Shown here: positions 1,997-56,907 of the stretch, piece by piece
How the letters are laid out: every line of letters begins with the position of its first letter
Numbering within the stretch: position 1 is the stretch's first letter
Source of the DNA: an uncultured Elusimicrobia bacterium
GTDB taxonomy: Bacteria; Elusimicrobiota; Elusimicrobia; JACQPE01
Length of the DNA stretch: 64,000 bases
Reading direction: 5' to 3'
NCBI GenBank assembly: GCA_964357255.1
Contig: CAYHKQ010000001.1
Location: 5,018-69,017, forward strand
Translations under genes and position numbers: made by a program
The notes under the pieces: model-generated
What the model was told of the DNA's origin: nothing
Databases searched by the model: none
What the model saw: the letters and a program-made list of their open reading frames with translations, nothing else

Positions 1997-3778
1997 ATGA
2001 AAAGACATGTCTTAAGTTTAGCCGCAGTCATTGTCGCCGGGCTTGGCGTTTCAATGGCTGGCGCCGTGGCCCGAGTGCCGGACCAAATGCGCATCAGCGG
2101 GATTAAGGGCGAGGTGCAGATTTGTGATCGCTCGAATAATTGCAATCCGGCCCAGGAGGGCCAGGCTCTCAATCAGGGCGATATTATTAAGGTAGGCGCG
2201 GACAGCAAGGCGCGCCTCGATCATGGCGCTAAGGACCGGTTTGAGCTTCGGGAGAGAAGCCGTGTGATGGTGGACCAGTTGACTCCGCGTGGATCGAGGC
2301 TTGAGCTTTTTGTCGGAACTCTCAAGGCCAGGATTAAGAGCGGCTTTTTCCAGCGCCGCGACGTTTCCGTGGTGACCGCAGTGGGCGTTATGGCTGTGCG
2401 GGGCACTGAATTTCTTTGCAAAGCGGATGAGAACGGCAATGTGCAGACGGACGTGATGTATGGCCGCGTGGACGTCCTCGATAGCGACGGCGGTTACAAG
2501 GACAGTCTTATTCAGGGTGAATCCGGCAATGCCAAGGGCGACGCTCCCAAGGATGACTATAAAGCGGAAGGAAAATCAGGCGAGGATAAGGCCGGCGAGG
2601 GTGATAAAGAGGGTCAGGGGGAAGGCGCTCCTCCTCAAATGGGTGATTCTAAGGGCGGCAAAGGCGATGGGCCGCAAGGCAAGATGGAAAAGGGCGAAAT
2701 GTCAAACGAATCTTTCGCTGAAGGCTTTGGCGGCGTTGAAGGTTTTCAGGCTTACGGCAGAGCGAACGAGGAAAGCAATGATAAGGCCCAAGATTTTGCC
2801 GGAAATGAATCGGCCAAGGTCAGCGACATTGTCAGTTCGGTCCGCGAGGATGATTTGACCAGCGGCCGAGCCCTGATTGACCGGCATGGCAATTTGGTCC
2901 GGGTTGAACAGCGTTTACAGCGGCCCACCGGGGATACCTTGCAATTTGTTAATTTCGTCAAGCGCGATGAGTATGCCTTTAAGGGCTATTTTGCTCCGGA
3001 TAATTTAACCAGCGCCGCGCGCAAGGACTATATGAAGGCAACGGTTACTTTTAATAAGAGCCTACCGGAAAGCATAGCGGACTGGCCGGCATTTTTCTCG
3101 GAGAACAGCGATGTCCTTAAGGTTACGGGGATGAACGCTGAATTAGCCAATGGGATTGATGTCAACAATCAGGATTACATCAAGTTTAATACGGCTTACA
3201 ATTCCGCCAAGAATGAAGTCGGCGGAGCGCAGTGTCTTGGCAAACAGACCCTGGGAACCGATTGTTTTGAAGAAACCATTGTCGGCTTCGTAAAGAATAC
3301 AACGAAAAAGGGTGAATGGCGGGTGTCGGATTGCAATTCGTCCAATTGCGGGAGCACGACCGCGGAGATTAAGAGTCATGGCGGCGACGTTGACGACGGT
3401 GGCGATGGCTCAGGCAATCTGTGGGGCAAGGCGGAGGCTCCTATCAACGTTGAAAATGAAATTATTGATACGGAGAATTTGGTGGTTGAGGCTAACGCGG
3501 CCACGGCGGAAATGTGGCTGTTGACGGAAAGCTATGCCATTGACAATAGCGGCAGTATTCTGAATATCAATAATATTTTAAACTCTAATATTACCGACCC
3601 ATTTACCTTTATGAAATCGGTAGGAATTGAGACTGTTATGACTCTCAGGACTGATAAATCCGCCAATGCCGGCCAAACGATTTTTCAAAACAGAGGGAAC
3701 ATTGATTTGGTTATAATTCCTGATCTGATGGTTGACATCGTTCAGAAATACGCCGGGCAGTTGGCGGGAAGTCTATAA
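1997..3778 (+). CDS. FecR-domain secreted protein (sigma-regulator/FecR-like fold) with a long Gly/Lys/Asp-rich linker and C-terminal domain
   Basis: ATG at 1997 with GGAGGT 7 nt upstream. Signal peptide; FecR-type segment QGDIIKVGADSKARLDHGAKDRFELRERSRV...AVRGTEFL. Divergent from the CHASE2 kinase, a commonly seen pairing. Confidence 0.6.
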   Translation: MKRHVLSLAAVIVAGLGVSMAGAVARVPDQMRISGIKGEVQICDRSNNCNPAQEGQALNQGDIIKVGADSKARLDHGAKDRFELRERSRVMVDQLTPRGSRLELFVGTLKARIKSGFFQRRDVSVVTAVGVMAVRGTEFLCKADENGNVQTDVMYGRVDVLDSDGGYKDSLIQGESGNAKGDAPKDDYKAEGKSGEDKAGEGDKEGQGEGAPPQMGDSKGGKGDGPQGKMEKGEMSNESFAEGFGGVEGFQAYGRANEESNDKAQDFAGNESAKVSDIVSSVREDDLTSGRALIDRHGNLVRVEQRLQRPTGDTLQFVNFVKRDEYAFKGYFAPDNLTSAARKDYMKATVTFNKSLPESIADWPAFFSENSDVLKVTGMNAELANGIDVNNQDYIKFNTAYNSAKNEVGGAQCLGKQTLGTDCFEETIVGFVKNTTKKGEWRVSDCNSSNCGSTTAEIKSHGGDVDDGGDGSGNLWGKAEAPINVENEIIDTENLVVEANAATAEMWLLTESYAIDNSGSILNINNILNSNITDPFTFMKSVGIETVMTLRTDKSANAGQTIFQNRGNIDLVIIPDLMVDIVQKYAGQLAGSL

Positions 3779-3802: not shown

Positions 3803-4531
3803 TTGATTCTAAAGCGGTTTGCCCCCCTTCTTGCGGTTGCGGCATTGTTTGCCCTGCCCGCTCAGGCCAAGGTTGATTTTGCCTCAAAGGGCAAATCCTT
3901 GGCCCTCGAGATTGCGACTAATCCCGCGGGTTTTCTTTATGATCTTCATCAAATGAGCGAATCAGCCGCGCCCACGCGCGTAGGACGCAGGCTTTCTTTT
4001 GATTTTCAAATGATACCGACCCTCTTGCCTTTTACAATCGCCAACATCGGCGGTCGGTTAAATCTTTTGTCGGAACATCCCGGGCTTCCGCAGATCGAGG
4101 TTTTTGGCGGCATTTCCCGGCTTATGGCCCTGAGCTATCTCGACACTACCGAGGTCGAAGGCTCGATCAATGGCAATCATTACGGCGCGAGCGTGGTTTG
4201 GTCCGCGCATTCCAAGGCTCGCGTGCAGCTGGGCTACGAGGTGAGCACGCTCAAGGGCAAGGTGGAGTTCAAGAAAGAGCCCGTGGATGTGTTCGGAACG
4301 AAGCTCACTGAAATTACGGTGGGCGCTCAAGAGCGTTTTGTTTTGGTCGGCGCCGAGCTTTTGCGCGGCAACCGCCGTTATTTGTTCACTCAGATGGGAT
4401 ACGGCCTTCAAACCTCAAAGATTTTTTCCAGGGTTCTTTTCGTAGGCAGGGTGTTCCAGTGGGGATTTACGGTATTCCCGGAGAGCGCCCTGGTCATTTA
4501 CCCCAACTGGGGCTTTAGGATTGGATTCTGA
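3803..4531 (+). CDS. Predicted outer-membrane beta-barrel protein
   Basis: Signal peptide MILKRFAPLLAVAALFALPAQA, alternating amphipathic strands, C-terminal ...WGFRIGF ending in Phe (OMP signature). Stop overlaps the next start (ATGA-type coupling). Confidence 0.5.
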   Translation: MILKRFAPLLAVAALFALPAQAKVDFASKGKSLALEIATNPAGFLYDLHQMSESAAPTRVGRRLSFDFQMIPTLLPFTIANIGGRLNLLSEHPGLPQIEVFGGISRLMALSYLDTTEVEGSINGNHYGASVVWSAHSKARVQLGYEVSTLKGKVEFKKEPVDVFGTKLTEITVGAQERFVLVGAELLRGNRRYLFTQMGYGLQTSKIFSRVLFVGRVFQWGFTVFPESALVIYPNWGFRIGF

Positions 4532-5775
4532 TGGAAAAACAGCGGTTAAGCGGTTTAGCGGTTAAGCGGTTTAGTGTTTTAAGGAGCATCTTTTATTTAC
4601 TTACCTGCTTAAGCGCTCAACTGCTCAATCGCTATCCCCTGTCGGCGCAAGAGAAAATTTTTATGCCTTATTACCGGTTTAATTTTGGAGAGGGCGTAGC
4701 GCTTCCTTCCAAAGGCGACTTTTTCGCGAGCCACACGGTCGGCTCTCAGGTGGGCGGGCTCTTAAATGCCACAGACTGGCTTCATTTCTTTGGGTTATAT
4801 GATTTGACGTATCAGGGGCCGGGTTTGATTCGGTCCGAGGGCGAACTTTTTACTCAGCGTTCCATGCGGCACTCCTTTTTAATCGAGCCCTCTTTTACTA
4901 TCGCCAATGCAGGCAAATTGAGGCTTAAAGTTTTTACCATTAAGGAATTCAGGCGAAGCGGCACTAATGAAACTTGGGGCAAGGGACTTTATGATTACGC
5001 GGCCCAGGGCGGTTCCGTTGGTTTTGAGCGCGAATTTTTTGGCTTTCGTTTTTTCCCGGCCATCCGGATCATGCAGATGAAATTTCCCAATTACACTGAT
5101 CTTTTGCGGGAATTCCAAGAATCAGGCTTGAGCGCCGAACTTGCGGGCGGCTTAATGGATCAGAATGTGATGGCTTATTCACTTAATATTTCGAGAAAGC
5201 CGTTCAATGTGGGAGTGAGCTTGAGTTCACAAAAATATAAGAAAGAAAAAGTTGTCGGCCAGGGTGGCGTTTATACCAGCGACGCGCAGAAGGACAGCGT
5301 GACCGAGATCACGGCTGATTTTGATGTGAGCCTGTGGCGTTTCAGCCTGGTGCCGGAGGGCGCCTATCGGATGAAGCGTTCGAATCAGAATTATTTGCGT
5401 TTCGCTTATTTCGGAGACCCAAACCCGACATTTGTCCCCAAAAACTATGATTACAATGAGATGAGCGTCGGGGGTAAACTTTATTTGAAAATGACGGAAA
5501 AGAAAGCGATTTTTGGCTCGATAGATTTAAATAACAGGGTCTATCCTAACCGCCCCCCTCGCAATGCCAGCGGCGTTTATGCCGCCGCAGGCGAGATGCA
5601 GAACACAACCTGGGGAGCCTGGGGCGGAGGAATTCAGTGGAAAGTGTCTGATTACTCCACCTGGAATTTGGCCTATCATATGGTTTACAGCAAATCCAAC
5701 ATGAAGTACGATCGTTTTATCCCTTACAACTACACAGGCAACGTCGTCGGCCTGTACCTGAGTGTCTCCCCGTAA
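4531..5775 (+). CDS. Predicted outer-membrane protein with the conserved RLSGLAVKR...CLSAQ...LNR leader (paralog family)
   Basis: 414 aa, beta-rich, Tyr/Gly-rich. N-terminus MEKQRLSGLAVKRFSVLRSIFYLLTCLSAQLLNR is shared with the ORFs at 25510-26613 and 26615-27622. Confidence 0.5.
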   Translation: MEKQRLSGLAVKRFSVLRSIFYLLTCLSAQLLNRYPLSAQEKIFMPYYRFNFGEGVALPSKGDFFASHTVGSQVGGLLNATDWLHFFGLYDLTYQGPGLIRSEGELFTQRSMRHSFLIEPSFTIANAGKLRLKVFTIKEFRRSGTNETWGKGLYDYAAQGGSVGFEREFFGFRFFPAIRIMQMKFPNYTDLLREFQESGLSAELAGGLMDQNVMAYSLNISRKPFNVGVSLSSQKYKKEKVVGQGGVYTSDAQKDSVTEITADFDVSLWRFSLVPEGAYRMKRSNQNYLRFAYFGDPNPTFVPKNYDYNEMSVGGKLYLKMTEKKAIFGSIDLNNRVYPNRPPRNASGVYAAAGEMQNTTWGAWGGGIQWKVSDYSTWNLAYHMVYSKSNMKYDRFIPYNYTGNVVGLYLSVSP

Positions 5776-5817: not shown

Positions 5818-7218
5818 TTACTCAAACGCCAGGGTTACGATGGCTTGGACGCCGTTGATGGGACGGGGTGTTTCCCCTGTAATTTCATAAGCTTTGCCCG
5901 GCGTGAAACGATAGAGGCCGACAGTGGCCTTGAACCGTTCGGCAAAATTTGTGGAAATGTCAAACGACCATTCACCGCCGAGTTCTTTTGAAATTCCTCC
6001 GGACCCCTCGGTGGCGCGCAATTCATGGCGAGACACGCCGAGGCGCAACGGGACATTGAGTAGATAATAAGGCTTGGATTTGACGCCAAAACCGAAGGTT
6101 GTCACGCCGGAGAGGCCTGCTGGAAGGCCGTTCCAGGTTCCGGTGGAGGCTAACGCGTCAAAGGTCGTGGCGCCCAAGGCTTTCCCCCATCCGGTCCGGC
6201 GCGCGCCATCAAAGCGCGTGGCAAGCGGCGCGAAATAAGCCTCGTCAACCTCCGTGTTTTTTTTATCGCCGCTACCCAAGGCATAGAGAAGATTCCACTC
6301 CAAAGGTCCCAGGAAATCCATTTTAGGCAACCTCCCCCGCCACAATCCTTCAAAGACGTACGCCACAGTTCTGGATTTGACTTTTTGGACAGGATCGGTC
6401 AAGCCGGAAAAATAACGCCCCTGGGACAAGACGAATTCTGAATGGAAGGCGAAATTGGCCTTCTCTTGATCATAATGGAGGTTGAAGGAGTTTCGGGTTG
6501 CCTTGCCTGAAACCGGCCCGCCTTCTAAGACGCGGGGCGTTTTGTCGGCCTCAGTGAGCATTGCGAGCGTCCATCGGCCCGTGCGTTCAAAGCCGACAGC
6601 GAGCCAGTTGAATATAATTCTGTCCGATCCAAAGCCGCTGGTTTCGGTGTTGCCGTTCATATATTCAAGGGATAGCGGCCCCAAGCCGCTGATTTTGATT
6701 TGAAAGCCGAAAACCCCGATGCCGTTATCGTCCAAAAGAAGGCTGTCATTCCTGCCTATGGGAATGGTGCCGGCCTTAAAGAACAACGGATGACTGCCAA
6801 GGGTTCCTTCATGAGCCAAATAGGCTTGGGAGACAAAGACCCCGGGGCCGGGCTTGGGATAGCGGGTTGAGGTGTTAGCCAGGGGAGGCGGGAGCTCTTT
6901 TACTCCGGCCAGAGAAATATGCTCCATGCGAAAGTTGAAGATCCAGGGGTCTTCCTTGATTTTGATGTTTACGCTTGCCCGCTGGGCGAAGAAGGAGTAA
7001 TCGGCGCGGCGCGGAGAGGTCGAGATTTCGCTAAGCGCGTAATACGCCGGCTGGGCTGTGACAGAGAGGTCTATCATAGAGATCGCGTTTTCCGCCGCTT
7101 GCGGCAACTGGGCGACTTGAGCCTTAAGCTGGGAGGTCAATAAGGTCAATAAGGTCAATAAGGTGAGCGATCTTTTGTCATTGCGAGCGAAGAGAAACAA
7201 TCTCATAGAGGAATTCAT
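5818..7218 (-). CDS. Predicted outer-membrane porin-like protein (signal peptide, beta-barrel character)
   Basis: 466 aa. Leader contains LTLLTLLTLLT encoded by a tandem 9-bp DNA repeat. Beta-strand-rich body. No recognisable enzyme motifs. Confidence 0.45.
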   Translation of the reverse strand: MNSSMRLFLFARNDKRSLTLLTLLTLLTSQLKAQVAQLPQAAENAISMIDLSVTAQPAYYALSEISTSPRRADYSFFAQRASVNIKIKEDPWIFNFRMEHISLAGVKELPPPLANTSTRYPKPGPGVFVSQAYLAHEGTLGSHPLFFKAGTIPIGRNDSLLLDDNGIGVFGFQIKISGLGPLSLEYMNGNTETSGFGSDRIIFNWLAVGFERTGRWTLAMLTEADKTPRVLEGGPVSGKATRNSFNLHYDQEKANFAFHSEFVLSQGRYFSGLTDPVQKVKSRTVAYVFEGLWRGRLPKMDFLGPLEWNLLYALGSGDKKNTEVDEAYFAPLATRFDGARRTGWGKALGATTFDALASTGTWNGLPAGLSGVTTFGFGVKSKPYYLLNVPLRLGVSRHELRATEGSGGISKELGGEWSFDISTNFAERFKATVGLYRFTPGKAYEITGETPRPINGVQAIVTLAFE

Positions 7219-11609: not shown

Positions 11610-11715
11610 GCTTTAAAAAGAAGGCCAATGACGCCAGCAGGCCAATAGGGCTAAAAACGCAAACAGCGGCATTGTCCTCTTTGGCCTTCCGCTACAGTAT
11701 GCTAAATTACTTGTC

Positions 11716-25509: not shown

Positions 25510-26613
25510 CTAAAACCAGACGTGGGTGAGGGCTAGAATTTCGTTGTTTGGCACGGAGGGCGTTTCGGTGACGATTCGGAGTTGGGTTTCCAGGGAAAGA
25601 TATTTCAGCAGGAACCACTCGGCGCCGAGGATGTAGCGTGTGCGCGAGTCTCCCGCCTTTTTGGTGTCGGGATTGAGATTGTCTAATTGTCCGCGCAGGA
25701 GCAGTTCATCCTTGGCCATTTCGTAGTTTAATTCGCCGTGAAAGGCCGTTTGATGGGTTTTTGCCGAGCCGGCATTCGCCGTGTTGGTCCCCCATCCTCC
25801 TTCGCCGATGAACACAATCATCCCAAATCGCGTCCAGCCGAATATTCCGTACCGGATTTCATTTTGCCCCGCGGCGCTGTCGGAATTTCGATGGTGGAAG
25901 AAGGTGGCTCCCATAGCCCCGGTTTTTCCGACAAATCCCCATCGGCCGGCAATCGCCTTGGCCTCGCTGGCCGCGGCGGCGCCGTTGGCGGCGCCATTGG
26001 TAACGGATAGGTTAAAAAAGTATTCGCTTTTTGGCGCCAAGCCGAATTCGATGCCCGTGTCTGACTGGGTCGGCGACAAGGAGAATCCGACCGAAGGCGC
26101 AAAGGGCGAGATGCGGGTCAGTCCGGAATTGTCGGGGTCGTTGAGTTGAAGGCCGTAGGGAATGAAAAAACGGCCCGCGCGCAGATAGGCCGGGAAGTCC
26201 CCAGGGAGCTTGGCGAGAGCGTACATTTCAGCCGTAGCGCCCTGATTGTTGTTGTAGAGGAGAGCCAACTCGGGAGTCGGAACGGCCAGCACGTAGAAGG
26301 CGTTGCGGACAACGGCGAAGGATGCGGCCGGTCCCGCCTCTTTTTTGTTCAGCATAAAACGGAAGTCCGCTCCAAGATTAACGGTGTCGCTTAATCGGGT
26401 GGGGTTGGAGGCCGATGGTTTTCTCATTCCACCTCCCGTCGGATTGATATGACAGGCCGCGCAGTTATAACCACGCGAAGCCGCATAATAGGGCTGAGCC
26501 TGGAGGAGGGAGCGGTTGAGCGGTTGAGCGGTTGAGCAGATAAGTAAAAAAAAGAATTTCCTTAAAACATTTAACCGCTTAACCGCTAAACAGCTCATCT
26601 GCCAACTCTGCAT
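25510..26613 (-). CDS. Predicted outer-membrane beta-barrel protein with an N-terminal CxxCH (haem-c-type) motif and the conserved leader
   Basis: Leader MQSWQMSCLAVKRLNVLRKFFFLLICSTAQPLNRS; GYNCAACHINPTGGG; beta-rich body; C-terminal ...THVWF (terminal Phe). Confidence 0.45.
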   Translation of the reverse strand: MQSWQMSCLAVKRLNVLRKFFFLLICSTAQPLNRSLLQAQPYYAASRGYNCAACHINPTGGGMRKPSASNPTRLSDTVNLGADFRFMLNKKEAGPAASFAVVRNAFYVLAVPTPELALLYNNNQGATAEMYALAKLPGDFPAYLRAGRFFIPYGLQLNDPDNSGLTRISPFAPSVGFSLSPTQSDTGIEFGLAPKSEYFFNLSVTNGAANGAAAASEAKAIAGRWGFVGKTGAMGATFFHHRNSDSAAGQNEIRYGIFGWTRFGMIVFIGEGGWGTNTANAGSAKTHQTAFHGELNYEMAKDELLLRGQLDNLNPDTKKAGDSRTRYILGAEWFLLKYLSLETQLRIVTETPSVPNNEILALTHVWF

Positions 26614-26614
26614 T

Positions 26615-27622
26615 TTATATTTTTACCCTTATCCCTAATTGATAGCTGTGGCCGAGTTGGCTGGAGGGTTGAACGGCCAGATCAAGACTTAGTGAACCCC
26701 ATTGAAGGCCGATTCCCGCGGTAAGACCGTCGAAGTATTCTCCAGGCCGGGCCGTTTCGGTGCGAAATCCGGCGCGGAAAGCCATGTAGAGAGGAATTTG
26801 GCGAAAGGGGCCGATCTCGGCCCATCGTTCCAGCCCCGCGTGCCAAGCCGGGTCATTGTCGCGCGCAACGACAAGGTCCAGGCTCGCAATGCCTTCGGGC
26901 AAGCCGGCTTGGTCTGCCTCGGGAGCCAGGCGGTAGGATAGGCCGGTTTTAAAGGTCAGGGGCAGGGGGGCCGAGGCTTGGCGTAATTGGACACGCTGGC
27001 CGATGTTGTCCGCGGTCAAAGAAAAGGCAAACGCTTTAACCCTGCGCAGGAGTCCCACGTCAAACGCTATGGCCTTTGCGGTTTCACCGTCAATGCCTTG
27101 GAAAATCCACTTTTCCGAGGCGCCAAGCGCCCAGGACCCGTCACCTATCGGCCGCGTCAGCGAGATGCAATAGGATTGATCCGATGGAGCGAACCTGCCG
27201 AATGCCGTTTCCGTGTTGTCTATTTTTTGGATTGCCTGGTGCTCAAGGCTTGTGAAAGAGAATCCGAACGTAAATCGTGAATAGCTCAGCGGCTGGGCGA
27301 AGGAAAGATAGCTGTAGCGGTAGAAGGACGGGAAATTATTGTGGCTGGCAACCAGTTCCCTTTTAGAAATTTGGCCCAGCCCGGCGGGGTTCCAATAAGC
27401 GGCGGTGGCGTCGTTAGCAACGGACGAAAAGGCTCCGCCCATGGCCGCGGCCCTGGCCCCGGCCGGGATTTTGAGAAATTGGGCTCCGGACGTGCCCCTG
27501 TCCCGTGAGGAGAAAGCCGCCCAGGAGGGGGAGCGGTTAAGCAGATAAGCGCTTAAGCAGATAAGGAAAAAAAAGGCGCTCAACCGCCCAACGGCCAAAC
27601 CGCTTAACCGTTTTTGTTTCAT
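26615..27622 (-). CDS. PorV/PorQ-like (FadL-type) outer-membrane beta-barrel protein
   Basis: Leader MKQKRLSGLAVGRLSAFFFLICLSAYLLNRS, then GARAAAMGGAFSSVANDATAAYWNPAGLG, characteristic of PorV/UPF0164-like barrels. 4-nt overlap with the upstream cargo-like gene. Confidence 0.45.
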   Translation of the reverse strand: MKQKRLSGLAVGRLSAFFFLICLSAYLLNRSPSWAAFSSRDRGTSGAQFLKIPAGARAAAMGGAFSSVANDATAAYWNPAGLGQISKRELVASHNNFPSFYRYSYLSFAQPLSYSRFTFGFSFTSLEHQAIQKIDNTETAFGRFAPSDQSYCISLTRPIGDGSWALGASEKWIFQGIDGETAKAIAFDVGLLRRVKAFAFSLTADNIGQRVQLRQASAPLPLTFKTGLSYRLAPEADQAGLPEGIASLDLVVARDNDPAWHAGLERWAEIGPFRQIPLYMAFRAGFRTETARPGEYFDGLTAGIGLQWGSLSLDLAVQPSSQLGHSYQLGIRVKI

Positions 27623-29881: not shown

Positions 29882-29954
29882 TTCATCAAATTGCGGAATT
29901 TTTTCGTTTTTCCGTTTACTAAACCGCTTATCTGTCGTCTGTCTAACCGTTTTT

Positions 29955-30787
29955 TTATCGTCGAGCTTCTACGGCTTTTTGGGCTTCGCGGACGCGGTCG
30001 TTTTTGGTGATGGAGTTGAGCTCGTTTAACGCGATTTCGCCGTCTCTGGCCCGGCGGATGATCTCGATGAGGAATTCGTAATTCTGGCGTGAAATTTCCG
30101 TTACTTTATCTATAACGTCAATTTGTTTTTCACCTTGCGCTGTTTGCACGACCTTGATAGCGTAGCGGATGTTGAGCAGGTGGCGGTTGCTGATTTGCCG
30201 GGCATACGCCGACATGCGATCGCGGATCATCGCGGCGTCGTCGGCGTAGTCCTCGGCCCGTCCGGCGTTTTGTTCCCATTGGTTGAGAGAGTGAATATAG
30301 TTGCCATGGGAATACTGTTGATTGTCGAGGTAATTGAGGCGTTTTCCCATATCCTTGAGCCGCGTTTCCCAGTATCCGTTGATATCTTTGGCCTGTTGCG
30401 CGAGATCCTCGAATCCTTTGATCGCCTTAAGCGCGTAATCTTCGTGTTTTTTCATTTCGCGTTCGATTTTGAGCGTGTTGGTCAAGGTATGGACGTCCAT
30501 CTGATGGCGTTTTTTTGGTTTGGGCTGTGGACGGGCCGCAGGAGTTTCGCCAAAGGGCATCAAGAGCGTAATAGCTTCTTCTCGCGGTTCGATCCGGACC
30601 TCATCAGACCGCTCGGCGTACCAGTCGTTTTCATCTGCTTGGTGGCCATGGCGGCCGCCAAAGAGGCTATGGGTCAACGCGTTGCTCGTCCCCAGGAGAA
30701 GCCAGAGCGTCAGCATCCTACTCATGGCCTGCCTTAACGCAGGGCTTGATTTTGGCGGATTGCGAAAGAAAATTCCCCTATTGCTCA
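29955..30787 (-). CDS. Hypothetical secreted coiled-coil protein
   Basis: Start probably at MSNRG (AGGAGAACC-ATG). Signal peptide MSRMLTLWLLLGTSNA; helical, Glu/Lys/Gln-rich. Confidence 0.35.
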
Positions 30788-30864
30788 TGGTTCTCCTGGG
30801 GCGAGCCCCCACCTTTCTTATTTACCAGAAGAACGGAAAATTTTCAAGGTTTATTTTGTAACCA

Positions 30865-31653
30865 TCAGCGTAGCCAGCCTTGGAGGTTTTCTTTGCGGGT
30901 TTGAACAAGGATCCAGCCTTCTTTTTTTTCTAGAATCCGGACGAATCGGCCTTCGGGGATTTGGGTGGTAATCGGCAGGCTCTCGGAAGGACCGGAGCGC
31001 AAAAGACCGGGACCTTTTAGGATCATCCATTCATATCGTCCGGCCGCTGCGTGGGAGAGCGTCAGCGCCAATGAAACCGCCAAACCGGCTCCGCCGGCCC
31101 AGGCGATCGCTCGCAGATTGGCGGAGGTTTTCGCGCCGGGCCGATATTTCAGGACGAACAGCGAGAGCGCCAGGGCCCACCACAAAATTAGAGTGAGAGC
31201 CGTCCATTCGGGGAAGTTCAAAAGATTCCACAGTCTGTAAAGGGCATAAGGCACGCCCGCGGGAGCCGGCGTGTCGCCGGTTTTTTGGCAGGCGATGGCC
31301 AAATTGCGCCAGAGGGCGTTGCTTCGGGGGTTGACGTGGATGGCCTTCCAGTATTGTTCAAGGGCTTCCGGATAATTATTGGCCTTAAAATCGGCGTTGC
31401 CCGCGTTGTAATAGGCCTGCCAGATTTCGGGGTTTTCCTGCGAGAAACGTCCATAAAGTTCAGCCGCCTTGAGGTAGTTGCCGTCTTTGTAAGCCTGAGC
31501 GGCCTCCTGCCACAGGGAGGTTGCGCGTGGTCTCTGGCCCCAGATCGAGTTGCCATGGCAGAATACATTAGCCATGCAGACAAGTAAAAACAAGCGCTTG
31601 AGTAATTTGAGGCAATTTTTTTTATCACTCAACCGTTTGACCTCTATTATCAT
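30865..31653 (-). CDS. batE: BatE-like TPR/TM/SH3b protein
   Basis: TPR repeats (AAQAYKDGNYLKAAELY...AGNADFKANNYPEALEQYWKAIHVNP), a TM segment, C-terminal SH3b-like GRFVRILEKKEGWILVQ. Last gene of the Bat operon. Confidence 0.6.
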   Translation of the reverse strand: MIIEVKRLSDKKNCLKLLKRLFLLVCMANVFCHGNSIWGQRPRATSLWQEAAQAYKDGNYLKAAELYGRFSQENPEIWQAYYNAGNADFKANNYPEALEQYWKAIHVNPRSNALWRNLAIACQKTGDTPAPAGVPYALYRLWNLLNFPEWTALTLILWWALALSLFVLKYRPGAKTSANLRAIAWAGGAGLAVSLALTLSHAAAGRYEWMILKGPGLLRSGPSESLPITTQIPEGRFVRILEKKEGWILVQTRKENLQGWLR

Positions 31654-33641
31654 GAAAGTTTTTCCAAAATTTTTTTTGCCTGGAGGACGCCCTCGAGAAC
31701 CTCGCTGAGAATTTCCTGCGCCTCCTCTTGGCGCGCCGGGGCGAATCTTAGATAATGCAGGCTCTCAAGAGTTTGGCGCAGAGTTTGGACTTCGGCCGAC
31801 GAAATTTTACCCCGGGCTTTATTGGCGATTTCTTCCGGCAGAGTTTTGGGGGTGACGGCCTCGGCCAAGCCAAGGATTTGGCGCAGAGCGCCCTCGAGGG
31901 CCGGAGCCAGCGCGCCGGCCATTTCAATCGGTTTATTTTCTTGGGCAAGGACTGAGGCTTTTTTGATGGCGTCGGCCAGGCGTTCAAGGGGCCGGCTTTT
32001 TTTAGCCAGGCGTTTTTTTCGCGCCATCCCGATTGCGCTTGTGGCCAGCCACAGGAGAACCGGTAGCCCTCCCGCGCCGGCCCAGCGCCGCGTCAAAGTC
32101 ATGCTTAGGCGATGGAAAATCCCTGGCGCGGGTGTCGCCTCAATGATGAACCCGATGTCCTCGCCAAATTTTTTGGCGTCCCCGCGCCCTCCGGCGGCGC
32201 CGGAGGCCGTGTGGATCGGCTCGCCGGAAACATTGACTGAAAGCGGCCGGGTTTCGCGGCGCACGTAGCCCTTGGCCTTGGGATCAAAGTACACGAAGCG
32301 GATGGGAGGGATGATCAGAGCGGGGTTGCCGGGGACTTGCGGAATCAACAGAAGCTTGAAGGTTTTTTTGCCGCTGATTTTTCCGTCTTGCTTGGTTATG
32401 GTTTCCGTTTTTTCAGTCTCATAACTGCGGAAGACGCCTTCTAAATTGGGATAGGCCGGGCTCGGCAAGCTGCGGATATTGCCTTCGCCGGAAATGGCGA
32501 CCGTCAGAGTCAGCGTGTCGCCGATTTTAATGCCGGTTTTATCGAGCCCGGCTTCGAGATCGAATTGGCCCACGGCGCCGGAAAAATCCCTGGGGCGCGA
32601 CTCCTGCGGCAGGGCAAAGGCCGTGATTTCCACGGATTTGGTTTCCAGGAGATGGGTCTGGCCGGATCCTCCGCCGAAGAAACGTTGAAAAAATTGCGGA
32701 TCAAAAGGATCGTTTGAGCCTGCGCCGGCCTGTTCGATTTCCATCTGAACCTTGGCCGGGCTGATTTTGAGCTTGCCAGGATTGGTCGGGAAGAGAATCA
32801 GGGGGATTTCCGTGGCTTGATAAGGAGTTCCGCGCACGTTGGTTTGAAAGGTTTTCTGCGGCAAATTTTCCTGCCAGAATCCGCTCGTATTGGGCGGAAC
32901 ATACTGAGGTTGCGAAAGGAAAGCGACGCGGGTGTAGAAAAGAACGGAGAGTTTGACGGGCTCGCCGACATACGCCTCATGCTTATCCGTCCTGGCTTCA
33001 ATAAAAACCAGAGGCGGCGCTTCTTCCGGGGCCTCCTTGGGTCCCTTGCGGCGGGTCTCGCCGTCCGGGCCTGGGCCCGGAGATTGGGCTCGCTCAGCGC
33101 GTTTGTCTTCGAGCATTTGCCGGGTTGTGCGAGGGAAATTCGGCACGGCAAAGGGTTGGATGATCCCCTGGGGCGCGCCCTGCACCTGGGCGGATTTTTG
33201 GTCCGCGACTTCTATGGACACGGTATTGGAGGCGATTTCCTGGCCGCCGCCGGCGTCAATTTTGGCGGGACCAAGTTTATATGCTCCGGGCTTTGACGCG
33301 GATAAAAGCAATGTGTAGATTACGCTGGTCGTCATTTTCCAGTTGACGATTTCGACTTTTTGGCTCTTCGATTGGGAATAGACGGAGAGTTCCGGCGGGA
33401 TGATGATTTTGGGTTCACTCAAGCCCCCTGAACTTCCGTTGACGGAAATTTCAAGCGCCGCGGTGTCGCCGAGGAGCATTTTGTTTTTATCCAGGCGCAG
33501 GACGATCTCGACACCGGCCCACAGGGGGAAGGCAAAAAAGGCCATAAACGCCAAAGAGGCCAAAGAGGCGAAGGAATAAATATTTTCCTTATAGCCTTTT
33601 TGGCTTTTATGGCCCCCGGGGCTTCTTTTGCCTTGTTTCAT
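31650..33641 (-). CDS. batD: BatD-like protein (oxygen-tolerance family)
   Basis: 663 aa, N-terminal signal/TM, a large beta-rich ectodomain, a TM near the C-terminal third followed by a helical tail. 4-nt overlaps with both neighbours. Confidence 0.6.
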   Translation of the reverse strand: MKQGKRSPGGHKSQKGYKENIYSFASLASLAFMAFFAFPLWAGVEIVLRLDKNKMLLGDTAALEISVNGSSGGLSEPKIIIPPELSVYSQSKSQKVEIVNWKMTTSVIYTLLLSASKPGAYKLGPAKIDAGGGQEIASNTVSIEVADQKSAQVQGAPQGIIQPFAVPNFPRTTRQMLEDKRAERAQSPGPGPDGETRRKGPKEAPEEAPPLVFIEARTDKHEAYVGEPVKLSVLFYTRVAFLSQPQYVPPNTSGFWQENLPQKTFQTNVRGTPYQATEIPLILFPTNPGKLKISPAKVQMEIEQAGAGSNDPFDPQFFQRFFGGGSGQTHLLETKSVEITAFALPQESRPRDFSGAVGQFDLEAGLDKTGIKIGDTLTLTVAISGEGNIRSLPSPAYPNLEGVFRSYETEKTETITKQDGKISGKKTFKLLLIPQVPGNPALIIPPIRFVYFDPKAKGYVRRETRPLSVNVSGEPIHTASGAAGGRGDAKKFGEDIGFIIEATPAPGIFHRLSMTLTRRWAGAGGLPVLLWLATSAIGMARKKRLAKKSRPLERLADAIKKASVLAQENKPIEMAGALAPALEGALRQILGLAEAVTPKTLPEEIANKARGKISSAEVQTLRQTLESLHYLRFAPARQEEAQEILSEVLEGVLQAKKILEKLS

Positions 33642-33643
33642 GT

Positions 33644-34330
33644 TTACCAGTCATTCTCCACATTTGTTTCCTGGGAGCGGCGTTTTTTCATTTTTTGGGC
33701 TTGCTTCATTTGCTCTTGCTCGAAGGAATCGAGGAGCGACTGTATAGCCTGTTGGTCCATTTGGGACTCTTCATTTTTTTTCTGTTGGTCCTGTTTGTCT
33801 TCCCCCCCTCCCTGGCCGCCGGAATTTTTTTGGTTCTCCGGGGGTTTGGTAAGCCTCAGCGCCAGGGCCAGATTATGCCGCGCGTCCTCGTCTGCGGGAT
33901 TGAGCAATAGAGATTTTTTGTACGCTTCAACCGCTTCCTGGGTTTTGTTCTGACTGTAGAGCGCGTTGCCCAAATTGTACCAGCTTGCCGCTTGAAGTTT
34001 CGTGTCTTTGGCTGACGATTGTCTTGATTGGGCAAAGGATCGCGAGGCGTCTTCTAGGTCGCCTAGTTTATATGTCGCGCAACCCTTATTAAATTGAATG
34101 ATGGGATTTTTTGGATCGAGCCGGCCGGCCTGATTGAACGAGTTTAACGCCGATTGGTAATCGCCTTTTTTGAATTGGTCCGCCCCCTCCCGCGTGGGAG
34201 GCTTCCAGGAAGCCGCATGAGGAAAGGTGAATGAGGTGAACAACGTCAATAAGGTAAACAATGCAAAAGACAACCAAAGAGTATTTTTTTTAACCTGATT
34301 CGCCTCATTCGCCTTATTCATATTATTCAC
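33644..34330 (-). CDS. batC: BatC-like TPR protein
   Basis: N-terminal TM, TPR repeats (YQSALNSFNQAGRLDPKNP, NLGNALYSQNKTQEAVEAYKKSLLLNP), a C-terminal charged low-complexity tail. Confidence 0.6.
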   Translation of the reverse strand: MNNMNKANEANQVKKNTLWLSFALFTLLTLFTSFTFPHAASWKPPTREGADQFKKGDYQSALNSFNQAGRLDPKNPIIQFNKGCATYKLGDLEDASRSFAQSRQSSAKDTKLQAASWYNLGNALYSQNKTQEAVEAYKKSLLLNPADEDARHNLALALRLTKPPENQKNSGGQGGGEDKQDQQKKNEESQMDQQAIQSLLDSFEQEQMKQAQKMKKRRSQETNVENDW

Positions 34331-37366: not shown

Positions 37367-37518
37367 GTAACTATTCAGGTGCGGCGCTCCCCTTGCTGTC
37401 ATTCCCGCGAAAGCGGGCCGTTCGCAGGGCTCGCGGCACCTTGGGGCGCCGGAGGCGCTGATCGGGAATCCAGGCCCCGACCCCCGCCTTCGCGGGGGTG
37501 ACGGACCTGAACAGTTAC
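37367..37518 (+). mobile_element. MITE-like repeat, copy A (152 bp)
   Basis: TIRs gtaactattcagg / cctgaacagttac (12/13 inverted). 8-bp flanking direct repeats cttactta / cttgctta. Internal perfect hairpins cccgc-GAAA-gcggg and cccccgc-CTTC-gcggggg. About 95% identical to copy C. Confidence 0.7.
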
Positions 37519-41128: not shown

Positions 41129-41356
41129 GTAACTACTCAGGTTCCTCTTCCCCGTCATTCCGGCGAAAGCCGGCCGTTCGCAGAGCTCGCGGCACCTTGG
41201 GGCGCCTGAGGCGCTGATCGGGAATCCAGGATTTCATTCTGCAAATCAAGAACTGGATACCGGCTTTCGTCCCGTCAGGAGACGGGACAGTCCCCTCAAT
41301 TTTAATAGAGGGTTGGGACGCCGGTATGACGAATCCAAAAAAACCTGGGTAGTTAC
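41129..41356 (+). mobile_element. MITE-like repeat, copy B (228-bp variant)
   Basis: TIRs gtaactactcagg / cctgggtagttac. Perfect 8-bp TSD ttattttt on both sides. First ~105 bp homologous to copies A and C, then a different module with the hairpin gtcccgtc-AGGA-gacgggac. Confidence 0.7.
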
Positions 41357-51478: not shown

Positions 51479-51630
51479 GCAACTATTCAGGCGCGGCGCT
51501 CCCCTTGCCGTCATTCCCGCGAAAGCGGGCCGTTCGCAGGGCTCGCGGCACCTTGGGGCGCCGGAGGCGCTGATCGGGAATCCAGGCCCAGACCCCCGCC
51601 TTCGCGGGGGCGACGAACCTGAGCAGTTAC
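51479..51630 (+). mobile_element. MITE-like repeat, copy C (152 bp)
   Basis: gcaactattcagg ... cctgagcagttac. Direct repeat atatttttaag abuts both ends. Same two hairpins as copy A. Ends 22 bp upstream of the aspA-like start codon. Confidence 0.7.
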
Positions 51631-53055: not shown

Positions 53056-53913
53056 ATGGAACATCCATCGGTCATCGGCAGGGTTCGCTCGGCGCCTGCC
53101 CAGCTGTACTACAACAACCTGAAATTTTTTGGTTCCTATGTCACAATACCGGTTAGCGCCGGGGTTTTGGCCGACCTGGTGCTTCGAGGCCGTATTATGG
53201 CCGGTCCGGTGGCCGCTGGTGATTTGACCCGTTTGCTTCAGGAAGGATGCGAAGAACTGGCTGATTTTGGAATTTTTATTAATCCGTACAAGGCTTACGC
53301 CGAACTGCCGGATGAGTCCGCGCAGGCGGCCATCAATCATGCCCCTTATGTGATGCTGACCCGCCGTCCTATTGAAGAGCACGGGCGGCTTAAAGTCGGC
53401 ATCTCTGAAGAAATCTTGAGCTTGGCGCCCGAGGCCGCGGTGTTGGCTAAACTGCTGTTGTCGTTTTATTGGGAGATGGACCACGAAATTAGCTCCGAGC
53501 TTAGCCTGGAGGATGATGTTTGGGTGTGCCAGGGCGGGCCGTATCTTGGCTCGCGGTCCAGGCAGTTTTTTGGATTTTCCTACGCCTACGATTTGGCGTG
53601 GGAATGGTATCGTTGGAAACGCGCCCCCTTTTGTCTTTACCGTTGGGTTTGCCAGCCGGGTTTAGAGCGTGATCAAAAAGATGAATTGATCAGCGTGATC
53701 CGGCGCACCTTGGAGCTGAATTTGCGTAACTTGAGCCAAATGGCGGCTCAAGAGGCGTCTTTAAAGGGTCTCGAACGCGGTGAAGTCCTGGACTATTTGC
53801 AATGCTTCGGGTTTCGCCTGGATCTCTGGAGAGAGTCCGCGCAAAATGCGCTCTGCAATTTAGTGTCCATGCTCAAAGAGTCGGAGATTTTTTCTCTGAG
53901 CCCCAGAGCCTAG
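53056..53913 (+). CDS. MqnA/MqnD-family (periplasmic-binding-protein-like) protein, possible chorismate dehydratase
   Basis: IGRVRSAPAQLYYNNL...LVLRGRIMAGPVAAGDL parallels the MqnA pattern IGxIxxLNxxPLYxGL...LxxGxLDxGPV. Confidence 0.4.
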   Translation: MEHPSVIGRVRSAPAQLYYNNLKFFGSYVTIPVSAGVLADLVLRGRIMAGPVAAGDLTRLLQEGCEELADFGIFINPYKAYAELPDESAQAAINHAPYVMLTRRPIEEHGRLKVGISEEILSLAPEAAVLAKLLLSFYWEMDHEISSELSLEDDVWVCQGGPYLGSRSRQFFGFSYAYDLAWEWYRWKRAPFCLYRWVCQPGLERDQKDELISVIRRTLELNLRNLSQMAAQEASLKGLERGEVLDYLQCFGFRLDLWRESAQNALCNLVSMLKESEIFSLSPRA

Positions 53914-53980
53914 CGTGAGTTTACTGCGGTTGCGTAATTCCGGGGACACCCCACTTAATTCATATGTTCTAAAATCCTCC

Positions 53981-54090
53981 ATGGCCCGCATTGCCAGAAT
54001 CGTTGCTCCGCATATCCCCCACCATGTCACGCAAAGAGGAAACCGAAGGCAGAATACTTTCTTTTGCGACGATGATTACCAACTGCGTTT
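53981..54090 (+). pseudogene. Truncated RAYT/IS200-like (HUH Y1) transposase, N-terminal ~37 codons only
   Basis: MARIARIVAPHIPHHVTQRGNRRQNTFFCDDDYQ matches the RAYT/TnpA-IS200 N-terminus (G..YHVTxRGNRRQxIF.DDxD). The frame then runs into tandem repeats. Confidence 0.55.
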
Positions 54091-54094
54091 TTCG

Positions 54095-54215
54095 GTCCAA
54101 AGTGGCCACCCTTTTCGGCGGCATGACGGCCACCTATTTCGGAACATGACGGCCACCCTTTTCGGCCGGAAGACGGCCACTTTCTAGATCCTTCCGAAAG
54201 GGTGGCCATCATGCC
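54095..54215. repeat. Tandem ~23-bp iterons (4 direct plus 1 inverted copy), putative IS21-family multiple terminal repeats
   Basis: gtggccacccttttcggcgg / gacggccacctatttcggaa / gacggccacccttttcggcc / gacggccactttctagatcc, then inverted ccgaaagggtggccatcatg. Located 85-200 bp upstream of the istA start. Confidence 0.6.
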
Positions 54216-54300
54216 CGAAACACCCCCGCAGCGAACGGCGTTGGTTTAACCACAATTCGCCGTAGAATCCTTGCAATGTTTCCAGCATCAAGGAGGTTCT

Positions 54301-54960
54301 ATGGCACAAGAGAGGTTAACCATGCGCACAACAAAGGAGGTTTGCAGGCTTAAGTTTGCCTGCTACCTGAGCAACCGCCAAATTGCCAAGAGTCTTGGCA
54401 TTGGCCGTACAACAGTCGCGGATTATCTGGGGCGCGCTCAAGCCGCGGGCCTGGCGGATTGGCCGGCGATTGAAACCATTGGTGAAGAGGAACTCGAACA
54501 AAAACTCTTTTCTCTGCCACTGGACAACCCATCGGCCTCATCAAAGCCCCTGCCCGATTACGCCAGGGTCCATGAGGAGCTTCGCAATTCCCATGTTACC
54601 CTGACGCTTCTGTGGCAAGAGCACAAGGAGCAGCATCCCGATAGCCACGGCTACACCCAGTTCGCTCATTACTACAGCGAGTACAAGAAAAAGCTGGGCC
54701 TGGTGATGCGCCAAGAGCATAAGGCCGGGGAGAAAGTCTTCGTGGATTACTGTGATGGCCTCGGGATCATTGATCCCGATACAGGAGAGATTGTCCCAAC
54801 CCAGCTCTTTGTGGGAGTCTGGGGAGCGTCGAACTACACCTACGCCGAGGCCTCCCGAAGCCAGGACCTGGCCTGCTGGACCATGAGCCATGTGCGGGCC
54901 TTTGAATACTTCAACCGCGTTCCGGTAAGCTTGCAACGTCCCAACCTCCGGAAGCCATAA
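54301..54960 (+). mobile_element. istA: IS21-family transposase IstA, N-terminal fragment (truncated; no istB follows)
   Basis: AAGGAGG SD; HTH RQIAKSLGIGRTTVADYL; IS21 IstA-like N-terminal body ending prematurely at ~220 aa. Confidence 0.65.
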
Positions 54961-55499: not shown

Positions 55500-55863
55500 T
55501 GCGAATTTAGAATAAAAGTAAAAGGAGACTTGACCCTCAAACAGGAATTCCGGGGACACCCCGCTTAATGCAGGAACCGCTACAAAAAAAAGTTTCCCGT
55601 AGCCTACGATCAATACGCCAAGCTCCTGGAAGAAAAGCAAGCGCAGGAGTCTGCCTTGGCCCAGCTCACGCAGGAATACCTATTGTTAAAAAAAAGAGTG
55701 AGTTAGTGAATTCCGGGGGAATTCCGGAATTTTAAAGCTATTGCGGGAGAATAAAAAAACCGAAGTTTGTCTATACGGCTTGTAGCGCAGAAAAAAGCTG
55801 ACTGTTCGAGGGAAAAATTAGGTTTTAGGGCCGCGTCACGCCCCCAACCGCAGTAAACTCACG

Positions 55864-56907
55864 CTAGGGCACGAGCACGATTTTTCCAAAGAATTGGCGC
55901 GAGAGCATTTTTTCCTGGGCTCCCCGCGCGTCCTTGAGTCCCCAGACGGAATCAATCACGGGACAGAGTTTTTTTTCTTCCACCAGTTGGGTAATTTTTT
56001 GAAACTCGGCCAAGGTTCCCATGATTGATCCCTGGAGCCGGATTTCGCGGGTGAAAAAATATCGAAGATCAATCGGAGCTTCTGGGCCGGCGGTGGCGCC
56101 GCAGGTGACGATGATCCCCCCTTTTTTAACCGATTTAATGGAATTCGCCATCGTTGCCGGGCCCACGTGTTCAAAAACAATGTCTACGCCCCTGCTATCC
56201 GTGGCCACAAGCGCCTCGCGGTAAAACGGGGTTGAGCCGTCGGGCTTGGAAAGGATGGTAATATCGGCGCCCAGGGCCCTGGCCTTGTCTAGTTTGTCCT
56301 CGTTGCCGGCCACCGCCAAGATTGGCTTGGCGCCTGCGAGTTTGGCGATTTGGATGGCGGCAACGCCGATTCCGCTGGCGGCTCCAAGAATTAAAACGCT
56401 GTTGCCTGCCGCAAGGTTCCCCTGGGTCATGAGCATGTGCCAAGCGGTAAGGAATGTCAGCGGGTAGGCCGCCGCTTCCTCAAAGCTGATGTTTTTTGGT
56501 TTGGCCGCTAATTGTCGGGCTTTGACCTTGACAAACTCGGCCAGACCTCCCGGAACATGCTCGCCTAAGATGCCGTAGGCGACGCAAAGATTGTCCCTGC
56601 CCTCCAGGCAGAAGGGGCACTTAAAGCAGGAGATTCCCGGCGAAATTACCACGGCCTCTCCGGCGATCCATCCCTTGACCCCGGAGCCGAGCCGGGCAAT
56701 TTCGCCGCTCGCGTCGCAACCTGAAATGTGGGGCAGGGGAACTTTTAAGCCCGGCAATCCTTGGCGCACCCAGATGTCCAGGCGGTTAAGCGCCGTTGCT
56801 CGCACGCGGACCAGGGCCTCGTCTTGGGCTAAGACCGGATCGGGAAAATTTTCAACATATTCGAGTTTTTCAGGCCCGCCGTGTTCGCGGAAGATGACGG
56901 CTTTCAT
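55864..56907 (-). CDS. Zn-dependent alcohol dehydrogenase / quinone oxidoreductase (MDR family)
   Basis: GAASGIGVAAIQIAKLAGAKP Rossmann fold; the MDR N-domain with the CxxC..C structural-Zn-like cluster CFKCPFCLEGRDNLC. Confidence 0.75.
   Translation of the reverse strand: MKAVIFREHGGPEKLEYVENFPDPVLAQDEALVRVRATALNRLDIWVRQGLPGLKVPLPHISGCDASGEIARLGSGVKGWIAGEAVVISPGISCFKCPFCLEGRDNLCVAYGILGEHVPGGLAEFVKVKARQLAAKPKNISFEEAAAYPLTFLTAWHMLMTQGNLAAGNSVLILGAASGIGVAAIQIAKLAGAKPILAVAGNEDKLDKARALGADITILSKPDGSTPFYREALVATDSRGVDIVFEHVGPATMANSIKSVKKGGIIVTCGATAGPEAPIDLRYFFTREIRLQGSIMGTLAEFQKITQLVEEKKLCPVIDSVWGLKDARGAQEKMLSRQFFGKIVLVP

Follow-up and report, generated by a model that had tools for sequence, protein, structure and literature searches.

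The stretch analysed here, called the window throughout, comprises 64,000 nt of contig CAYHKQ010000001.1 (assembly GCA_964357255.1) of an uncultured Elusimicrobia bacterium, whose source habitat is Hainich groundwater, well H41. Three of its open reading frames (ORFs), at 4531-5775 on the forward strand and at 25510-26613 and 26615-27622 on the reverse strand (genes 1, 2 and 3), have near-identical N-termini over the first ~35 residues. A 5' module of ~105 nt is common to the three genes and is built of tandem 8-mers, CGGTTAAG in one arm and CTTAACCG in the other, with the two arms inverted. Tandem Repeats Finder detected period-8/16 arrays at 4541-4574, 26510-26537, 26571-26595 and 27532-27565. 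The word CGGTTWAGCGGTT occurs 15 times with at most two mismatches, compared with 3.4 +/- 1.8 times in shuffles. The ORFs, the arrays and the word counts thus bear out what the first-pass annotation had described, namely three near-identical leaders with 8-mer repeats. An inverted repeat at each gene start had also been described and is present, with predicted hairpins of -48 kcal/mol in gene 1 (z-score -4.65), -37.6 kcal/mol in gene 2 (-3.59) and -39.9 kcal/mol in gene 3 (-1.44). The array of four tandem 8-mers in gene 1 exists as well, though at 4543-4574 and not at 4545-4576 as first placed. From module to module the DNA is 72-86% identical over 85-109 nt. In BLASTP between the three proteins, the alignment covers no more than the first ~35 residues, the mature parts being unrelated. 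The genes are therefore not the paralogous outer-membrane protein family they had been taken for, and the leader is carried by proteins without relation to each other, among them a porin-like barrel, a PorV/PorQ protein, a TPR protein and an amidase.

The predicted signal-peptide coding region of gene 1 covers codons 1-40 (4531-4650, forward strand), with predicted cleavage at LSA/Q or SAQ/E at about 4647-4650. Within it lies a palindromic element of 93 nt (4543-4635, forward strand), which is arranged as 5' arm, loop and 3' arm. The 5' arm (4541-4576) reads CGGTTAAG CGGTTTAG CGGTTAAG CGGTTTAG with the translation RLSGLAVKRFS, and the 3' arm (4600-4633) reads CTTACCTG CTTAAGCG CTCAACTG CTCAATCG CT with the translation LTCLSAQLLNR, the hydrophobic core. 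The corresponding region of gene 2 is found at 26494-26613 on the reverse strand (5' arm about 26568-26601, loop 26545-26567, 3' arm 26511-26544), and its 3' arm is a perfect CTCAACCG array of 3.4 units. Gene 2 starts 1 nt past the stop codon of gene 3, in which the region spans 27518-27622 (reverse strand), with the 5' arm at 27579-27610, the 3' arm at 27532-27565 and predicted cleavage at SWA/AF. A fourth, degenerate copy with MIIEVKRLSDKKNCLKLLKRLFLLVCMANVF was detected at 31576-31653 (reverse strand), at the N-terminus of the gene 30865-31653, with an nhmmer profile of six copies (E=0.0025). The independent contig L001 breaks off within the perfect CTCAACCG array of gene 2, at window position 26518, and the exact gene 2 protein had no match in the protein collection with either of two start codons, so the window assembly is the sole source for the leader-body junction of this gene. 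An identical 27-nt stretch of the array is also found in another gene (L128).

Gene 3 encodes a PorV/PorQ-family outer-membrane protein (124.7 bits, cutoff 90). The AlphaFold model of gene 1 (predicted local distance difference test, pLDDT, 85) has a helix at residues 10-33, within the leader, with a porin-like beta-barrel after it. For gene 2 there is a weak Porin_O_P match, and its C-terminus is ...HVWF. Soon after its signal peptide, at residues ~50-56 (window 26430-26470), gene 2 also has a CxxCH motif (NCAACH), which is unusual in an outer-membrane barrel.

The leaders have K/R residues within the first 18-19 positions, a core FFFLLICLSAxLL with a maximal 11-residue Kyte-Doolittle mean of 1.8-2.5, and A-x-A-like ends (LSA/Q, LQA/Q, SWA/A). 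The alignment of mature gene 1 with its orthologues begins at (Q)EK.F.PYYRF, and that of mature gene 3 with PorV homologues at AFS..D.GT.GAQFLK. Because of this basic, hydrophobic and A-x-A-like layout, and because the conserved mature sequence of the homologues starts directly after the leader, the leader is probably a full and unusually long (35-40 residues) Sec-type signal peptide cleaved by signal peptidase I, an assignment made by inspection and hydropathy. The unusual extended signal peptide that the first-pass annotation had considered is thus retained, whereas the lineage-specific outer-membrane protein family to which it was ascribed is not, as only the leader is shared. A twin-arginine translocation (Tat) signal was rejected, there being no twin arginine and only a single R in gene 3. 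A lipoprotein signal is disfavoured, since LL[ITV]C is a poor lipobox and has signal peptidase I sites downstream of it. An alternative start that would leave the 5' arm untranslated was also considered, and gene 1 has none ahead of the hydrophobic core.

Orthologues of gene 1 with 72, 70 and 66% identity are found in syntenic loci, where the shared gene order is a FecR protein, a ~243-256-aa protein (302 aa in L142) and the barrel. These orthologues have ordinary signal peptides of 20-25 residues, which differ from each other, and the PorV homologues of gene 3 also have ordinary signal peptides. Comparing the DNA of gene 1 with its closest relative, the orthologue with 72% identity (L138), showed a conserved left flank, which consists of the upstream gene and ATG RMA AAA CAG, and a conserved right flank, CCY YTG ... 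GCK CAA GAR AAA. Between these flanks lie 93 nt in the window, exactly the 5' arm, loop and 3' arm, versus 45 unrelated nt in L138. The boundaries of the element at gene 1 are the outer ends of the arms, and the native c-region PLSAQ is kept. In gene 1, the module took the place of the native signal peptide. Possible proto-modules in the PorV homologues P0004 and P0008 and in the gene 1 orthologue P0138 were rejected, as they have no DNA similarity beyond the T-rich core.

A word-index protein search with the leader alignment gave a false negative result; in a local hmmsearch the window's own proteins score E~1e-20. An index-free profile search, which covered 1.84 billion representative proteins, detected five further bearers: a TPR protein, a 220-aa protein, a 333-aa protein, an amidase whose gene call is fused with tilS, and a second PorV-like protein. 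The DNA of these five leaders is 75-90% identical to the window copies, and the loci of the five bearers have no other matches to the window except one separate 84-nt leader match. The TPR, 333-aa and second PorV-like proteins occur together with a one-residue variant of gene 3 in one NCBI metagenome-assembled genome (GCA_038059855.1, MEK72871xx-72885xx), so that these three are from the same species. For the 220-aa protein and the amidase the source is the same Hainich well assemblies, and they probably belong to this species too. In total at least nine copies are known, four in the window and five on other contigs, each at the N-terminus of a protein that appears to be of the exported type. 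In one of them (L128) the 5' arm and loop are inverted, giving direct rather than inverted repeats, and the reading frame is still open as a putative signal peptide; its array is perfect, with 4.25 units. Another copy (L131) is without the 5' arm.

DNA profile scanning covered the 64-kb window and sister-lineage loci. With the nhmmer profile of six copies, no non-coding copy was found in the window and no copy in ~34 kb of distinct syntenic sister-lineage DNA (~45 kb of loci, two of them overlapping). A metagenome scan at the Joint Genome Institute (JGI) only found a Hainich contig again, plus three chance matches, and a scan of a viral collection gave no match. Within this coverage the module is restricted to one species and located at gene starts only. 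Outside the modules the 8-mers occur 1-3 times in the window where ~2 are expected. A DNA uptake sequence or Chi-like genome-wide motif was rejected on this lack of enrichment. The related motif that the first-pass annotation had placed at 29915-29950 does not stand either, with a module profile score of E=2 and 4.4 bits at this position. These data also bear on the idea that the tandem 8-mers are iterons, i.e. binding sites of a transcription factor which co-regulates envelope genes. Several envelope genes do have repeated, sequence-specific and oriented sites in common, as expected of iterons. However, the sites lie within operons at cistron junctions and not at promoters, with a spacing of 8 bp neighbouring sites do not face the same side of the DNA helix, the intergenic DNA of the window is free of the motif, and the arms decay freely in several copies. 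The regulator-binding iteron of the first-pass annotation therefore finds no support, and we consider it the least credible of the explanations weighed here, to the point of being nearly negligible.

Divergence between the copies was examined codon by codon. For the six copies alignable in this way, the pairwise differences at codon positions 1, 2 and 3 are 0.24, 0.23 and 0.31. The ratio of non-synonymous to synonymous differences per site (pN/pS) is 0.5-2.6, and pS is 0.07-0.46, far from saturation. Similar divergence at all codon positions together with low pS points to copying at the DNA level followed by near-neutral drift, and not to an old motif held in place at the protein level. A check of synonymous positions had been proposed in the first-pass annotation, and as synonymous sites are no more diverged than non-synonymous ones, its outcome favours a DNA-level explanation. 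The 8-mer unit steps through all three reading frames. Units in which TAA would be in frame are altered in 14 of 14 cases, in both arms (TTAAG to TTTAG; TAA to CAA, TAT, TGG or CAT), and the TTAA core is intact in 19 of the 34 units of the other two phases, as read from the codon alignments. The divergence between the copies looks like that of copied DNA, and the units show a pattern of stop-codon avoidance. The nucleotide-level signature that had been suspected, with 8-mer arrays, inverted arms and hairpin, is present, and protein selection alone does not account for it.

An alternative explanation is that the leader is a protein-level sorting signal for a dedicated targeting, peptidase or lipidation route, comparable to YSIRK, ESPR (extended signal peptide region) and phytoplasma SVM, and that the DNA repeats are incidental. 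Each of the nine bearers is predicted to be an envelope or exported protein, the core F-L-L-I/T/V-C-L-S/T-A-x-x-L-N-R can be made out in eight of eight alignable copies, and similarity stops near the predicted cleavage site. The Cys of FLLIC is invariant in all eight, in one of them with a synonymous codon (TGT in L128), which hints at some protein-level constraint. On the other hand, the pN/pS values and the even divergence over the three codon positions speak against a dedicated signal, and so does the restriction of the leader to one species, with close orthologues at 66-72% identity using ordinary and differing signal peptides; beyond a Hainich contig it was not in the JGI scan. Neighbouring exported or outer-membrane proteins of the same operons also carry ordinary signal peptides, the N-terminal extension is missing in L131 and has other residues in L128, and the poor lipobox is followed by A-x-A-like signal peptidase I sites. 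In the phytoplasma SVM, YSIRK-G/S and autotransporter ESPR types, conservation of the signal peptide is at the protein level and extends over species and genera. These types resemble the Hainich leader in that one recognisable, often extended signal peptide is found on many unrelated mature proteins. The difference is that the Hainich leader occurs in one species, with pN/pS near 1 and with similarity at the DNA level that includes synonymous sites. We regard a dedicated sorting signal as improbable.

The perfect arrays in gene 2 (3.4 units) and L128 (4.25 units) indicate that the repeats are still undergoing homogenisation or expansion. This raises the question of contingency loci, in which slipped-strand mispairing would add or remove units and, through the resulting frameshift, turn surface proteins on and off. 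Neisseria opa genes are a precedent, with CTCTT coding repeats in the leader peptide, a unit that is not a multiple of 3 and that encodes the hydrophobic part of the signal peptide of an outer-membrane protein (PMC3960869). As in opa, the unit length of the Hainich arrays is not a multiple of 3 and non-triplet tandem repeats near the 5' end of surface-protein coding sequences specify the hydrophobic part of what is probably a signal peptide; the two perfect CTCAACCG arrays would fit recent homogenisation or expansion. The opa arrays are, however, long, perfect, length-polymorphic and phase-varying, whereas the Hainich arrays have only 2-4 mostly imperfect units (up to 4.25 in L128) in inverted arms and show no length variation between assemblies. 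The leaders are identical in 2-3 independent assemblies per locus at five loci, which is a weak test as these are consensus assemblies. In addition, the arm lengths are equal in genes 1, 2 and L124, and a groundwater organism has no obvious host-driven need to switch. Phase variation through these arrays is therefore very unlikely in our view.

On balance we lean, with somewhat better than even confidence, towards the following explanation: the module is a palindromic repeat element that is specific to this species, has tandem 8-mer arms, was co-opted as a signal-peptide cassette and passed between genes for exported proteins through copying at the DNA level. The element would be an imperfect palindrome of ~93 nt, encoding the n- and h-regions (about 31 codons) of a Sec-type signal peptide. 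It would have been copied into the 5' ends of at least nine unrelated genes for exported proteins, by element insertion or by short-patch recombination, and would have overwritten the native signal peptides of its host genes. Short-patch recombination could have proceeded via the A-rich start and the C-rich c-region, with transposition as the alternative. The T-rich loop and the 3' arm would be translated as the hydrophobic core FFFLLICLSAxLL and the complementary 5' arm as a basic amphipathic extension of the n-region (RLSGLAVKRLSVLR), while each unit that puts TAA in frame would have been changed by one or two bases. The element may be tolerated and used because the loop and 3' arm supply a hydrophobic core, the 5' arm supplies a basic n-region and the in-frame TAA codons were removed. 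The period of 8 bp, the inversion of the arms and the alternation of A and T would then be footprints of the element and of stop-codon removal, and not a binding-site array. We rate this repeat-element explanation above phase variation, a dedicated sorting signal and regulator-binding iterons. That the peptide functions in export and how the copies arose are inferred.

Several observations weigh against the repeat element as we describe it. Five of the nine copies came from a protein search, which is blind to non-coding copies, and the invariant Cys was noted above. All known copies have one orientation and frame relative to the host gene, and in five copies the similarity runs slightly past the arms, with MK.K at the start and SP.WA at the end. 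The event at gene 1 is a replacement (45 nt out, 93 nt in) and no clean insertion. No target-site duplication is present at gene 1, where AAACAG/CGG...TAT/CCCCTG has no flanking direct repeat. No cognate transposase was seen within the window, where the Y1 and IS21 remnants at 53915-54960 carry unrelated inverted repeats; this includes the repeats that flank the Y1-transposase remnant at 53915-54187, which are unrelated to the module. Given the uniform orientation and frame and the similarity past the arms, gene-to-gene copying fits better than random transposition.

The hairpin may also be a selected feature in its own right. In this explanation, which is compatible with an origin from a repeat element, an RNA stem-loop at the cistron junction would tie translation of the exported protein to the upstream terminating ribosome, or would stabilise or process the upstream polycistronic mRNA. 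The signal peptide would host the hairpin because the genes overlap, which leaves the most permissive coding sequence as the sole place for it. Eight of the nine module genes begin at most 1 nt from, or overlapping, the upstream stop codon, compared with 14 of 35 other same-strand pairs (one-sided p = 0.011), and the hairpins start 9-14 nt past the start codon. Pairing between the coding sequences of the n-region and h-region is also found in unrelated leaders, at 33641 (z -4.0), 34330 (z -2.6), 30812 (z -3.9) and in the patatin gene of L124 (z -5.3). Short ordinary signal peptides have folding z-scores near 0, and the longest local inverted repeats of the window are enriched at palindromic leaders. 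Among the eight alignable copies, the hairpin is strong in three (genes 1 and 2 as given above and L124 with z -5.33). Counting against selection, it is weak in three others (around z -1.5) and absent in two (L128, z +0.83; L131, z -0.42). There is also no sign of compensatory evolution: the RNAalifold covariation term is +2.83, 88.5% of cells are paired versus 86.7% in shuffles, and the covariation score was equalled in 84 of 500 shuffles. The 5' and 3' arms pair equally well between copies and within a copy, so copy-specific co-evolution of the arms was rejected. The hairpin has no consistent strand preference, and Rfam has no family for it, only sub-threshold matches to generic microRNA hairpin models. 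The mRNA hairpin suggested in the first-pass annotation is weakened by the missing covariation and by the loss in two of eight alignable copies. As a selected feature it is a possibility that we hold only tentatively; the inherited RNA hairpin may plausibly have a role at cistron junctions.

Two other structural identities were rejected. An intrinsic terminator is at odds with the position of the T-run, as only gene 3 shows a weak GC stem followed by a T-run, and in genes 1 and 2 the T-run sits in the loop. An integron attC site was considered since GTTAAGC and GCTTAAC fit the GTTRRRY and RYYYAAC cores, but their order is the reverse of that in attC, the arms consist of tandem arrays and the module is surrounded by ordinary operons.

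Besides the 8-mer module there are further palindromic leaders in this genome. When 56 gene starts were ranked by the folding z-score of their first 135 nt, the top ones were those of exported proteins with long leaders: 30812, gene 2, 34330, gene 1, 43337 and 33641. The start of the cytoplasmic gene 60690 (z -2.5) is also among the top-ranked. A second leader family has 9-mers, AAAGGCCAA and TTGGCCTTT, on opposite arms. It is found in the window at 33507-33641 (reverse strand), in a 663-aa protein starting at 33641, and in L124 at 3270-3400, in a patatin gene on another contig of the species. Both fold into near-perfect hairpins (-56.7 kcal/mol, z -4.0, and -54.5 kcal/mol, z -5.3, respectively), and the two leaders match at 83% in opposite orientation versus 72% in the same orientation. 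In the leader of a 228-aa protein starting at 34330 (34196-34330, reverse strand), GAATGAGGY units of the n-region pair with ACCTCATTC units in the hydrophobic core (z -2.6 to -3.4). The 9-mer theme ATTGACCTT is common to the leaders at 34330, 7218 and 47968. Thus the genome holds several palindromic leader families, with the 8-mer CGGTTAAG, the 9-mer AAAGGCCAA and the 9-mer ATTGACCTT.

The leader at 7218 belongs to an outer-membrane protein gene (5818-7218, reverse strand), whose core LTLLTLLTLLT is a perfect 9-bp tandem array of 3.4 units at 7134-7164. Compared with its orthologue (L140, 13657), the signal-peptide region is frameshifted and the older sequence is read in a shifted frame. This core looks newly made by repeat expansion. 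As an observation in its own right, a long-range stem of -62 kcal/mol (z -3.9 to -5.1) spans 30678-30822 on the reverse strand, where the region around the possible start codons of the gene 29955-30812 pairs with the sequence encoding its hydrophobic segment LTLWLLLGTS.

A more general explanation is a palindromic DNA element that propagates itself and is translated into a ready-made signal peptide. Such an element could land at a gene start, supply or replace the export signal and add a hairpin at the cistron junction, and several families of it could exist in the genome. Perhaps in either orientation, the arm-loop-arm palindrome would read as n-region and h-region: hydrophobic NTN codons become polar or basic NAN codons in the reverse complement, so that a palindrome would tend to read as an n-region and then an h-region. 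We consider this broader proposal speculative and less than probable.

Among described repeats, Rickettsia palindromic elements (RPEs) are ~100-150 bp palindromic repeats in many copies, which lie in frame within unrelated genes and are translated (PMC10969869). Both RPEs or intragenic MITEs (miniature transposable elements with inverted repeats) and the Hainich element are short, multi-copy palindromes that are translated in frame in unrelated proteins; the Hainich element has a 93-nt arm-loop-arm unit in at least nine dispersed copies with 72-90% identity in unrelated genes. RPEs, however, lie at permissive internal sites and give a peptide without known role, whereas the Hainich element is always 5' and appears to supply the signal peptide. 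The Hainich element also replaced a native signal peptide and has tandem 8-mer arms, with no target-site duplication or transposase seen. [quoted passage not shown] They differ as 25-residue domains arrayed in the mature protein in many phyla, compared with a single palindrome per gene that forms the predicted signal peptide here. Repetitive extragenic palindromic (REP) sequences and bacterial interspersed mosaic elements (BIMEs) are likewise repeated palindromes at the cistron boundaries of operons, with stable RNA stem-loops of comparable position and size. REPs are extragenic, in contrast to the Hainich element, for which no GTAG/CGTC-type tag or flanking RAYT gene was seen. RPEs, opa repeats and PARCELs are the closest described phenomena, and none of them encodes and replaces signal peptides like the Hainich element.

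Further repeats in the window stand apart from the 8-mer module. An intergenic family at 37369-37518, 41152-41230 and 51481-51630 (80-150 nt, 94-96% identity) has inverted repeats GTCATTCCCGCGAAAGCGGG ... CCCGCCTTCGCGGGGGTGAC; it has the look of a MITE or REP-type element and no relation to the module. A perfect 24-nt inverted repeat (53909-53932 and 55845-55868) encloses a truncated Y1 (IS200-like, 'PHHVTQRGNRRQ') transposase ORF, a 24-nt tandem array at 54104-54180 and an IS21 IstA-like ORF at 54271-54960, and looks like a decayed composite insertion. At 11620-11689 (reverse strand), just upstream of a tRNA gene, lies a terminator-like intergenic hairpin GAAGGCCAA...TTGGCCTTC followed by a T-run. 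The GGCCAA theme of the 9-mer leaders recurs in it, and a possible hydrophobic mini-ORF of 19 codons overlaps it.

In the usual view, signal peptides drift fast and yet are vertically inherited parts of their genes. In this species a repeat element appears to have overwritten the signal peptides of many genes, over a short evolutionary distance, as the old peptide is still found in orthologues with 72% identity. In practical terms, leader repeats of this kind fragment metagenome assemblies, for example at the end of contig L001, and can mislead gene callers and homology-based family assignment, as happened with the reading of these genes as paralogous outer-membrane proteins. If the repeat-element explanation is true, export signals would be obtainable as DNA cassettes, and the complementarity of the genetic code would allow the layout of a signal peptide, first basic and then hydrophobic, to be encoded by a hairpin. 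The signal-peptide region may then also be the place where gene-dense genomes with overlapping genes fit RNA hairpins at cistron junctions. Should the element prove to be self-propagating, it would represent a general, previously undescribed route to the rapid turnover and de novo creation of signal peptides.

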